DNA of 64,000 nt from a virus. Taxonomy: Duplodnaviria > Caudoviricetes. A model generated the notes under the pieces. It saw only the letters and a program-made list of their open reading frames with translations, was not told the DNA's origin and did not search any database. This document shows, piece after piece, positions 1,186 through 4,172 of this stretch. The stretch covers positions 32,001 to 96,000 of the IMG/VR virus record IMGVR_UViG_3300032216_001891; one strand, 5' to 3'. The translations under genes and the position numbers were made by a program. Each line of letters opens with the position of its first letter. Within the stretch, counting starts at the first letter, position 1.

Positions 1186-2205
1186 TTATAAATTCCTATA
1201 GATATCTAATAACAGATTTTTATTGAATTGTTCGCTTTCAATATTGCTCAACTGCCCAAAAACAATTTGATCCACACTTTCAAAATTGATGTTGCCGGCT
1301 ATTTCGTAATCGGTCAAGTCGGTTGCTTTGGCGGGAATCAGTGTGATTTCTCTAAGTTTGTAAGTATCGATGAATGTTTCTTTGATGAATGTGGCTTCTT
1401 CGTAGCTGATGTCGATGTCTAAATTAACTCTCACATGCATGTTAGGCTCCAGCATGGCTTCGGTGTTTTTCAGCACATCACTGAGTTGGAACACACGATA
1501 GCGAGGTTGATCGGGCCAAGAATGATACACCGGCGGCCGATCCCACTCCAGTATCATTAAGCCTCGATCATCGTCGCCGGCATCAGCATAGTTGTGCGGG
1601 AAACAGTTGCCCAAGTATGTGACATTGCCTCGAGTCTGTCGCTTGTGAAAATGTCCAGAATACACATGCTCAAATCCCGTCAAATCCGTTTTAGGATTTA
1701 CTTCACCGTGATCGGGCATGGCCACCATGGCATTCATCAAGTAGCCCGGCAGTTCAAAATGTCCAAACATGTACTTGCCGGACAATTTCTTTAGTCGTTT
1801 GTAGTCGTCGCCCACCAACCACGGAGCAATAGTAACATCGCCGATACTAGTCCAATCGTTACAAATATGGATGTTAGCCAAGTGTCGGGCCCACTCCACA
1901 CTTTGTACATCACGCTTGTCACGATAATATAAATCGTGATTGCCGGGAATAAAGAATGTTTGCGAAAAGTTTTCATTTAAATGCTCCAAGGCACGTAGGC
2001 TGTAGCCCAGTGTGAGAATATTGATGCTGGCTCGATTGTTGTGCCAGTCACCGGTAAAAATACAAGTTTCACAGCCCTCTGCACGAGCACGAGCAGTAGC
2101 CCATTTGACAAAATTAAGGCAGTCCTCGTTGTGCAAGGTGCTGTTGCTTTTCAAGCCAAAATGGATGTCGGTGAAAACTGCTGCTTTTTTAAATAAGTTG
2201 GTCAT
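1186..2205 (-). CDS. gp47: Recombination endonuclease nuclease subunit (T4 gp47 / SbcD-Mre11 metallophosphoesterase)
   Basis: Motifs DIHFG, GDWH, GNHD, GHFE, SGHFH; likely start MTNLFKK at 2205. Confidence 0.93.
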   Translation of the reverse strand: MTNLFKKAAVFTDIHFGLKSNSTLHNEDCLNFVKWATARARAEGCETCIFTGDWHNNRASINILTLGYSLRALEHLNENFSQTFFIPGNHDLYYRDKRDVQSVEWARHLANIHICNDWTSIGDVTIAPWLVGDDYKRLKKLSGKYMFGHFELPGYLMNAMVAMPDHGEVNPKTDLTGFEHVYSGHFHKRQTRGNVTYLGNCFPHNYADAGDDDRGLMILEWDRPPVYHSWPDQPRYRVFQLSDVLKNTEAMLEPNMHVRVNLDIDISYEEATFIKETFIDTYKLREITLIPAKATDLTDYEIAGNINFESVDQIVFGQLSNIESEQFNKNLLLDIYRNL

Positions 2206-2213
2206 ATAGTCAC

Positions 2214-2242
2214 AGTATAAACAGAAATTTGACAAAGATCAA
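2214..2242 (-). promoter_or_regulatory. Sigma70-like promoter for gp47-gp46
   Basis: Minus strand TTGATC-17 nt-TATACT; ATG 8 nt after the -10 box, no SD. Confidence 0.6.
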
Positions 2243-2249
2243 ATCTATT

Positions 2250-3125
2250 TTACTCGTCTGCACCGTGTCCCATGCCCGAACCCCAGTCGCCCTGACGTGT
2301 GTAACTGGGAGTTAATCCATTCATTTCCAATATGTCATCGCGAAGATTTTGGCTTCGCTTCTCAACATTGAGCACTCTGGTAAAACTATTAGTGATGGCA
2401 GCAGTGTAATAGGCAAACGGGTTGGCACTTTTTGATTCATCAAATTTCAATCCAATAGCACTCAATTGCAACAACGCTTCGCTACGCATTTCGTCATTGT
2501 AAGTGTAGCCTCGCCAATTGCTACGTGTGGCATAGCGTTCGCACAGTTTTACAAACATGTGTGCCAGCTTTGGAGTCATTTTTCCGTGATCCTTTGAAAA
2601 TTTACCAGTTTTCATGCCACCGGTCCAGTGGCTTTTGCCCACACACACAGCTTTGCCTTCTGCATCGATCTTCCAGTGTTGAAACGGTGGAAAATTCACT
2701 TTGACATATTTGTTGTATGTGGTGTCTAGTTCATCGTATTCGGTAATAAGCGGATCTTCTGTATCATTAATCTCCAATGCTGTCATGCGAGCCTTTTTAG
2801 TTTTAGCATCATCAAGTGGAATGTGATCCCAAGTCATGATACGAAAAACTACATCAGTGTCAGCAATGTCTCGAAGTTTAATTTCAAACTCATCCAGTTT
2901 TCTTTTGACACCGGTTTCAGCAACTGCGGCTTCGTGGGCCACGCGAGACAATCGCTCGGCACGCAATTTGCGAGCTTCCAAGGTGTTCTTTTTATTAATT
3001 TTTTCTACACCGGGCAGTATCATGTCGTATTCTTGATATTCTTGACGAGTATAACTGCAATAAGTGGTTTTACTTTTGTGTATCTCTTTGAGAATATCTT
3101 TGTTGTTGAGGTAATTTGATTTAAT
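2250..3125 (-). CDS. gp55: Late-transcription sigma factor (T4 gp55-like); probable ATT start at 3125
   Basis: NWRGYTYNDEM and FDESKSANPFAYYT motifs. The N-terminal NYLNNKDILKEI motif lies in frame upstream of the ORF-track ATG (3023); AGGAGA SD 6 nt before ATT. Confidence 0.88.
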   Translation of the reverse strand: MKSNYLNNKDILKEIHKSKTTYCSYTRQEYQEYDMILPGVEKINKKNTLEARKLRAERLSRVAHEAAVAETGVKRKLDEFEIKLRDIADTDVVFRIMTWDHIPLDDAKTKKARMTALEINDTEDPLITEYDELDTTYNKYVKVNFPPFQHWKIDAEGKAVCVGKSHWTGGMKTGKFSKDHGKMTPKLAHMFVKLCERYATRSNWRGYTYNDEMRSEALLQLSAIGLKFDESKSANPFAYYTAAITNSFTRVLNVEKRSQNLRDDILEMNGLTPSYTRQGDWGSGMGHGADE

Positions 3126-3164
3126 TTTAGTTCTCCTAAAGGCTGTCTCACGACAGGTTAGTGT

Positions 3165-3193
3165 ATACTAACACATTTACGCACAATGAACAA
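3165..3193 (-). promoter_or_regulatory. Sigma70-like promoter for gp55 overlapping a near-palindrome
   Basis: Minus strand TTGTTC-17 nt-TAGTAT with TGn extension; the -10 lies in GTTAGTGTATACTAAC (3157-3172). Confidence 0.5.
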
Positions 3194-3225
3194 CCACTTT
3201 TATAATAATAGCAGTTTATTTTGTT

Positions 3226-3233
3226 TATAAATA
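3226..3233 (+). promoter_or_regulatory. T4-type late promoter TATAAATA
   Basis: Exact T4 late consensus upstream of the first baseplate gene. Confidence 0.75.
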
Positions 3234-3260
3234 CTGTATAACTTAATTATCACTACACCT

Positions 3261-4172
3261 ATGCCAGCTCAATATTTCGACGACGGTTCCAGTATTCAAA
3301 CATTTGATGACGGCTCTACACTGAGTGTGGGCAACGACGGATTGCTATCCTCCAGTCCCAGTAGCGATGCTGTTACAGATAAAGGCTCGGCCTCCAGCTG
3401 GTGGGATATGAGCAGTATACGAAAACGAGCCGCGGGATTATTTTCCGGTGGAGCTCAAACCGACCGTGTAGTGACTGCACCACGAGTAAACACCTTGAGC
3501 CAAGGCCAAGCTCAACCCTTGGATTGGCGAGTACGCATCAGTTTATCGGGCAGGAGCTGGACTCCGTTGATGGACGATGCCGATTCATCACTATTGTCTC
3601 CCTTGACTAGAACAGCAGAAACAGGAGTTATTTTCCCCTATACCCCTGCAATAACTGTGGCACACAATGCTAGATATCAAGAACAAGCACTGACACACAG
3701 CAATTATAAAAATTATTTTTATGAAGGATCGGATGTGGCTGCCATCACCATTGCAGGAGATTTCACCGTGCAAACAGTAGATGAAGGACAATATCTATTG
3801 GCAGCTATATACTTTTTTAGAACCTGTACTAAAATGTTTTTTGGCAATGAACAAAATGCCGGGAACCCACCGCCTATAGTATTTTTAGATGGCTATGGCG
3901 ACTACTATTTTCCGCATGTGAGTTGCGTAGTTACAAACTTCACACACACCATGCCCGATAGTGTGGACTATTTAGAAATTCCTGTGGGATCTTCAGCCAC
4001 AGTGTTCCCTGGTACTAAACCTGCCGCCAACAAATTGGTGAGATTGCCCACAGCCAGTCAAATATCAGTAACAGTACAACCAGTGTACAGCAGAGCCAAT
4101 GTGTACAAAAACTTTACCTTGGGTAAATTTGCACAAGGTAAACTATTGTCCGGCAACGGAGGATTCCTATAA
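3261..4172 (+). CDS. Baseplate/tail-tube initiator-like protein (gp48/gp54-like position)
   Basis: FPYTP...ITIAGDF...PPPIVFLDGYG pattern of tube-fold baseplate proteins; precedes gp53. Confidence 0.6.
   Translation: MPAQYFDDGSSIQTFDDGSTLSVGNDGLLSSSPSSDAVTDKGSASSWWDMSSIRKRAAGLFSGGAQTDRVVTAPRVNTLSQGQAQPLDWRVRISLSGRSWTPLMDDADSSLLSPLTRTAETGVIFPYTPAITVAHNARYQEQALTHSNYKNYFYEGSDVAAITIAGDFTVQTVDEGQYLLAAIYFFRTCTKMFFGNEQNAGNPPPIVFLDGYGDYYFPHVSCVVTNFTHTMPDSVDYLEIPVGSSATVFPGTKPAANKLVRLPTASQISVTVQPVYSRANVYKNFTLGKFAQGKLLSGNGGFL

Follow-up and report, generated by a model that had tools for sequence, protein, structure and literature searches.

The late sigma factor gene and its start region

The window (the whole stretch of 64,000 nucleotides that was analysed) comes from an IMG/VR virus record of 154.5 kb and about 44% completeness, and carries on its minus strand, at 2250–3125, a gene whose product is, to judge from its profile and structure matches, a T4 gp55-type late sigma factor. 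In minus-strand order, an in-frame TAG stop codon (3170–3168) is followed by a gap of 30 nt, the putative ribosome-binding site AGGAGA (3137–3132), the spacer ACTAAA, and an ATT codon (3125–3123), after which come the codons AAA TCA AAT TAC CTC AAC AAC AAA, with the frame running open until the stop at 2252–2250. ATG, GTG, and TTG are absent in this frame from 3167 to 3026, the first of them being the ATG at 3025–3023, which opens the sequence MILPG. It was in the initial annotation where this start-less stretch, with its Shine–Dalgarno site and ATT, was first described, and the minus-strand reading and translation returned exactly the same coordinates, as well as the same N-terminal extension of 34 codons from the ATT at 3125 to the ATG at 3025. 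The features of the locus, with the evidence for each, are the following:

2250–3125, minus strand: sigma coding sequence, 291 codons from the ATT, with an insert of about 150 residues relative to T4 gp55 (translation, PHROG and PDB matches, homologue coverage)
3123–3125, minus strand: ATT, proposed initiation codon (AUU) (aligned to the ATG/GTG/TTG of relatives; recurrence in IMG/VR and metagenomes)
3126–3128, minus strand: AAA immediately 5' of the start codon, within AAA-ATT-AAA (AAA at −3 to −1 is commoner at AUU/AUC loci)
3132–3137, minus strand: Shine–Dalgarno AGGAGA, 6 nt ahead of the ATT (anti-SD duplex of −7.3 kcal/mol)
3143–3156, minus strand: small leader hairpin CTGTC-GTGA-GACAG with a GNRA loop, a 14-nt insert (alignment, minimum-energy fold)
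3165–3173, minus strand: putative extended −10 TGTTAGTAT, containing the in-frame TAG at 3170–3168 (conservation and spacing)
3188–3193, minus strand: −35-like TTGTTC (TTGACA/TTGACC in relatives), 17 nt 5' of the −10 (alignment)
3023–3025, minus strand: internal ATG, Met35, used by automatic gene calls, a non-conserved start (Ile or Leu in relatives; no ribosome-binding site ahead)

With its −7.3 kcal/mol, the AGGAGA site ranks in the strongest 11% or so of the crude gene starts of this genome.

Identity of the gene product

The 291-residue product matched PHROG 12791, “sigma factor for late transcription”, over residues 2–280 (E 8e-77), PHROG 234, “late sigma transcription factor” (E 8e-23), and chain F of PDB 7d7c, which is T4 gp55 itself (E 8e-5). 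In the latter alignment, sigma residues 192–257 correspond to gp55 48–115, a region-2-like core, and residues 2–21 correspond to gp55 7–26, where chain F reads KYNYVNNKELLQAI; the N-terminal gp55 motif cited in the initial annotation is therefore real, and it aligns with the extended protein. The stretch NYLNNKDIL, at sigma residues 4–12, aligns with gp55 9–17 and fits the helix motif N-Y-x-N-N-K-(D/E)-(L/I)-L. Homologues of 36–44% identity, annotated as late sigma factors, were found in PA5oct, Rak2-like phages, Atu_ph07, Phosso, and a Vibrio giant phage, with the query covered from residue 1–2, and the five named-phage homologues inspected all have an ATG start a few codons 5' of the NY-x-NNK motif. 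An SbcD/gp47-type nuclease gene adjoins the sigma gene in most of these phages, as it does in the window. The Pfam search of the sigma protein gave no match, and megablast of the sigma region against GenBank phages gave no close DNA match, the best protein identity being 44%; the clade of this gene is without a cultured member. The AlphaFold2 model, built on a 30-sequence alignment, was poor (mean pLDDT 55, core region below 50) and did not show how the N-terminal helix packs.

Two further observations concern this gene and its neighbour. An insert of about 150 residues (approximately residues 23–175; 2600–3060, minus strand) separates the N-terminal helix of gp55 from the region-2-like core, is common to the PA5oct, Rak2-like, and Atu_ph07 homologues, and holds the sole moderately confident regions of the AlphaFold2 model, in blocks at pLDDT 70–90. 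Next after the sigma gene comes the gp47/SbcD-type nuclease gene (1186–2235, minus strand), an order also seen in PA5oct, Munch, Atu_ph07, and the Vibrio phage; its longest frame opens at the TTG at 2235, but the conserved phosphoesterase motif begins shortly after an internal ATG (M-T-N-L-F-K-K), and this ATG is the likelier start of the nuclease.

Evidence for translation from the AUU codon

Relatives of the sigma factor mostly begin with M-K-H-N-Y-L-N-N-K, their ATG standing at the codon aligned with the ATT of the window, and with so many homologues having an ATG at this exact codon, the position of the start is fixed. Among 80 IMG/VR loci taken by similarity whatever their start codon, the 46-member clade that includes the window (SH-aLRT 100) has, at this codon (the third ahead of the Asn of NYLNN), ATG in 28, ATT in 9, GTG in 8, and TTG in 1. 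The orthologues are thus not uniform in having ATG there, and a large minority of them carries ATT or ATC. The nearest relative, P0001, which is 88% identical and was independently assembled from two samples, has ATT too, as does P0007, on a 346-kb contig; the ATT also stands in L225 and in L087 and L088, which are independent assemblies from two samples. At some loci, such as L023/L118 and L232, a stop lies only one or two codons 5' of the ATT (one codon in L023), while at L048 it lies four codons ahead, with no canonical start in between.

Residues 4–16, 18–19, 22–23, and 33–34 are invariant among 30 metagenomic homologues of 71–84% identity, this being the best-conserved stretch of the protein, and the 33 codons 3' of the ATT show 10 synonymous and only 2 non-synonymous codon differences from the nearest relative, a pattern that points to strong purifying selection on the N-terminal 34 residues. 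Given that the 34 extension codons are the most conserved part of this gp55-type sigma factor, they must be translated, and the gene almost certainly begins at the AUU at 3125–3123 behind a strong ribosome-binding site. The proposal of an AUU start is therefore strongly supported by the alignment of this codon with the ATG, GTG, or TTG of the homologues, by approximately 75 distinct relatives with ATT or ATC, and by the conserved extension. Translation from the ATG at 3025–3023, which would yield a 257-residue protein and leave the upstream 34 codons untranslated, is very improbable: no canonical start precedes this ATG in the frame, and P0002, the database protein, is called from it, but it has no ribosome-binding site ahead, its Met35 is replaced by Ile or Leu in relatives, and the stretch that it would skip is the most conserved segment of the family, matches the T4 gp55 N-terminal helix, and has mostly synonymous substitutions. 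An ATG-to-ATT sequencing or assembly error, or a recoding event in which translation would begin at an out-of-frame GTG (3151–3149) and shift frame before 3116, is extremely improbable because, even though the record is a single metagenome assembly and the GTG-started frame of 43 codons overlaps the region, the ATT is present in the independent assemblies of other samples (L087, L088, and L225), in 66 distinct contexts, and in 113 metagenome stretches, while the GTG has no ribosome-binding site, lies in the loop of a 14-nt insert absent from most ATT relatives, and has no slippery site to join the two frames.

Distribution of the AUU and AUC starts

A pattern scan of IMG/VR for ATH at the start codon returned 114 stretches with 81 distinct contexts, namely 66 with ATT, 9 with ATC, and 6 with ATA, and nearly all the ATT and ATC contexts were without a nearby in-frame canonical start. 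All six ATA contexts have a canonical start upstream, an ATG 2–4 codons away in five and a GTG 8 codons away in the sixth, and therefore ATA was never seen as a start. In the metagenome collection, scanned with a pattern of GGAG, 5–9 nt, ATY, AAR, and NYLNN codons, the whole GGAG-spacer-ATY module was present in 113 stretches, which derive from many lake, marine, and soil-type samples. The comparison of upstream DNA from orthologues, which the initial annotation had put forward as a check, shows that ATT or ATC recurs, almost always together with a Shine–Dalgarno site of the GGAG type.

On a 199-tip tree, AUU/AUC and canonical starts interchanged at least 12 times, and the clades in which all starts are AUU/AUC include one of 18 members, extending to 72% protein identity, and one of 6, extending to 52%; we suggest keeping in mind that ATT loci were sought deliberately and ATG loci merely sampled, so that frequencies and switch rates are biased. 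The third base of the start codon changed 15 times on this tree vs. 57–84 times at four-fold sites, and we rejected this slow change as proof of selection for ATT, given that fewer changes are allowed at this base and that ATT loci were sampled on purpose.

Within the 154.5-kb record, the sigma gene is the sole case: only 1 of its 107 GGAG-N5–9-AT(T/C) sites opens at least 100 codons without an in-frame upstream canonical start, which is far beyond chance, and no other long frame of the record has a long start-less leader holding a ribosome-binding site and an ATT. A general use of rare starts across the 154.5-kb record was not found. A different arrangement was observed at locus L283 (IMGVR_UViG_3300031857_003799), where ATT-AAA-GTA-AAT comes right after an in-frame TAA and without a ribosome-binding site (+1.6 kcal/mol); translation there is either coupled to the upstream gene or begins by another start arrangement.

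Start codon and strength of the ribosome-binding site

In the near clade, all nine ATT loci have a GGAG core 6–7 nt ahead of the ATT, with −7.3 to −9.0 kcal/mol against the anti-SD, whereas 33 of the 34 other loci have an AAGGA-type site of about −5.6 kcal/mol, the exception being the ATG locus L007 (Mann–Whitney p 3e-6). More widely, a strong site (−7 kcal/mol or lower) was found at 72 of 74 AUU/AUC loci (97% for ATT and 88% for ATC, over all distinct contexts), compared with 23% of canonical (ATG) loci and 11% of the ATG/GTG/TTG loci of equal N-terminal length. Across the AUU/AUC loci, the GGAG core sits 6–8 nt 5' of the start codon, and AAA directly precedes the codon at 60 of 75, vs. 10 of 119 ATG loci. 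The dependence is one-way, with AUU/AUC accompanied by a strong site and canonical starts by either type. The loci combining ATG with a strong ribosome-binding site were also considered as recent revertants from ATT, and this idea was unsupported, since, apart from L007, they are placed in other subclades. By raw counts, the link between codon and ribosome-binding site is strong; with ancestry allowed for, it is weaker and borderline, given that, in 8 phylogenetically independent pairs, the strength of the site follows the codon in approximately 5.7, opposes it in 0.3, and is unchanged in 2 (median p 0.06).

These results bear on the proposal of the initial annotation that the master switch for late genes is translationally throttled, which holds only in part, because the AUU/AUC versions nearly always come with the stronger GGAG and the preceding AAA. 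The reinforced GGAG site and the AAA look like a compensation that restores output, not like a device to hold output low. Throttling would therefore be at best partial, given that the reinforced ribosome-binding site argues for selection keeping the output of sigma factor adequate.

Putative promoter, leader, and hairpin

An element TTGACA-N17-TGnTAGTAT is conserved in ten aligned relatives, with GTTAGTAT nearly invariant among them, and the version of the window consists of TTGTTC (3193–3188) and TGTTAGTAT (3173–3165), this −35 being too degenerate for the promoter consensus scan. The element resembles a sigma70-like promoter with an extended −10, which would fit early transcription by the host polymerase. 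Since the TAG sits inside the −10 box, the mRNA would start near 3158 and have a leader of only about 30 nt, with no other start available 5' of the ATT. The 14-nt hairpin insert (3156–3143) is common only to the window and its closest relatives in the alignment, and the minimum-energy fold predicts a hairpin CTGTC-GNRA-GACAG, with the remainder of the initiation region open. We rejected the hairpin as an obligatory partner of AUU, given that a hairpin next to the ribosome-binding site occurs in a minority of relatives and is just weakly enriched at AUU/AUC loci, that leader folding is only slightly stronger at AUU/AUC loci (−4.3 vs. −3.3 kcal/mol) and that part of it comes from the promoter palindrome.

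Additional elements were observed around this promoter. An inverted repeat GTTAG-N6-CTAAC (3157–3172, minus strand) spans the −10 box and is kept in many relatives, GTTAGTATGTGCTAAC being one of its forms; a DNA-binding regulator could use it as an operator, or it could be a feature of the start site. Upstream of the −35, the sequence TGCTATTATTATA is conserved (3201–3213, minus strand), and another site resembling a promoter, with its end at 3202, came out of the consensus scan. More distant relatives have TGCTATTATAT, approximately 25 nt ahead of the ATG, as their sole promoter-like element. Two promoters may therefore serve the sigma gene.

A late sigma factor of the T4 gp55 type is expected to direct RNA polymerase to late promoters of the TATAAATA type, acting with the sliding clamp and a co-activator like gp33. 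On the plus strand, TATAAATACT (3226–3235) lies 28 nt before a divergent virion-protein gene (ATG at 3261) and matches the T4 late-promoter consensus, and its plus-strand core ATAAATA is invariant in relatives. The full TATAAATA occurs only once in 64 kb, while TAAATACT, which is shorter, and CTAAATAC rank with the 8-mers whose enrichment ahead of open reading frames is highest, and of the 12 copies of TAAATACT in the genome, 6 lie at such a place. This phage may therefore use a shortened form of the late promoter.

Proposed mechanism and the question of IF3

We consider it highly probable, from the comparative evidence, that the sigma gene is AUU-initiated from a short leader in which a strong ribosome-binding site offsets a weak codon. 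In this scheme, the conserved sigma70-like promoter would give the sigma mRNA its leader of about 30 nt, which would present AGGAGA 6 nt before the AUU in an unstructured, A-rich context. The start codon of the family has switched repeatedly among AUG, GUG, UUG, AUU, and AUC, and since the AUU/AUC versions depend on the reinforced GGAG, the weak start codon would be paired with a strong docking site. The AUU would lower intrinsic initiation and raise its sensitivity to IF3, temperature, and nutrient state, so that the net dose of sigma factor would be set by the compensated initiation region as a whole. This setting matters for the timing of infection, given that virion genes have this sigma factor as their master switch.

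The initial annotation went further in suggesting a response to IF3 status, and in that case the AUU would work as a regulatory sensor, with initiation of the late sigma factor gated by the host IF3-to-ribosome ratio, temperature, or ppGpp, and with the early-to-late switch following host physiology. Such a role would add to the AUU start without replacing it, and we regard it as unlikely. It draws on the fact that AUU and AUC are the codons of the IF3 autoregulation of infC, on the finding that only ATT and ATC, and never ATA, were seen as starts, on the persistence of AUU/AUC-only clades up to 18 members (72% identity) and 6 members (52%), and on the restriction of the rare start to the sigma gene in the 154.5-kb record. 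According to work with E. coli extracts (PMC5499595), AUU was a less efficient initiator than AUG, and extra IF3, low temperature, poor medium, and ppGpp depressed the AUU mRNA more strongly than the others. Against a sensor, the reinforced ribosome-binding site points to selection for a sufficient output and not for a restrained one; sister lineages thrive with ATG or GTG; the 15 third-base changes vs. 57–84 at four-fold sites, taken from a biased sample, are no proof that ATT is actively kept; and the IF3_C search found no IF3 gene in the record or in five relatives, three of which are 90–98% complete. A RegA-type repressor (PF01818) was likewise not matched in the record or in the near-complete relatives, in a weak test with uninformative controls. 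That AUU/AUC plus a strong ribosome-binding site on the late sigma mRNA serves in a clade of freshwater giant phages as a physiological gate on the early-to-late switch, responding to the IF3-to-ribosome ratio, ppGpp, or temperature, is quite unlikely, in our opinion; if true, the AUU gate would tie virion production to the state of the host. With the compensated AUU initiation of the sigma gene as the preferred reading, a regulatory role may be what preserves the codon, or the AUU may be close to neutral once compensated.

Consequences for database annotation

The public call for the gene of the window (P0002, 257 aa) is truncated to the internal Met35, the database protein of P0001 starts at a GTG directly 3' of the promoter −10 box, and P0007 was called from a GTG abutting the ribosome-binding site. 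Together with P0086, these calls for AUU-started members are either truncated to an internal Met or extended to a spurious upstream GTG or ATG, and some of the spurious upstream starts overlap or adjoin the promoter or the ribosome-binding site. Because automatic callers truncate or over-extend the sigma gene in this way, its N-termini in the databases are often wrong and unreliable in public protein sets.

Comparison with known systems

The phage sigma factor resembles T4 gp55 in that the N-terminal NY-x-NNK-E/D-L helix and the region-2-like core (gp55 48–115) align, and in that its gene adjoins gp47/gp46-type nuclease genes, according to the annotation of PA5oct and other giant phages. It differs in having about 150 extra residues between helix and core, with Pfam silent, and in that the PDB protein (7d7c/7d7d chain F) begins with Met, whereas the phage sigma gene begins at AUU, as the evidence above almost certainly indicates. 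We found no paper in the literature on an AUU-started gp55 homologue. [quoted passage not shown]

The classic AUU-initiated bacterial genes are infC (IF3) and pcnB of E. coli, and in infC the AUU is followed by AAA. The phage sigma gene shares with them an AUU start (AUC in some infC) on a gene of essential or regulatory function and a rare codon that is retained within lineages, and its AUU is followed by AAA, as in infC. In contrast to infC, some close relatives of the phage sigma factor have AUG or GUG in place of this codon, and, given that the product is a sigma factor and not IF3, there is no built-in autoregulatory loop. In summary, this is a well-populated new case of AUU starts, in the gp55 family, and not a new mechanism.
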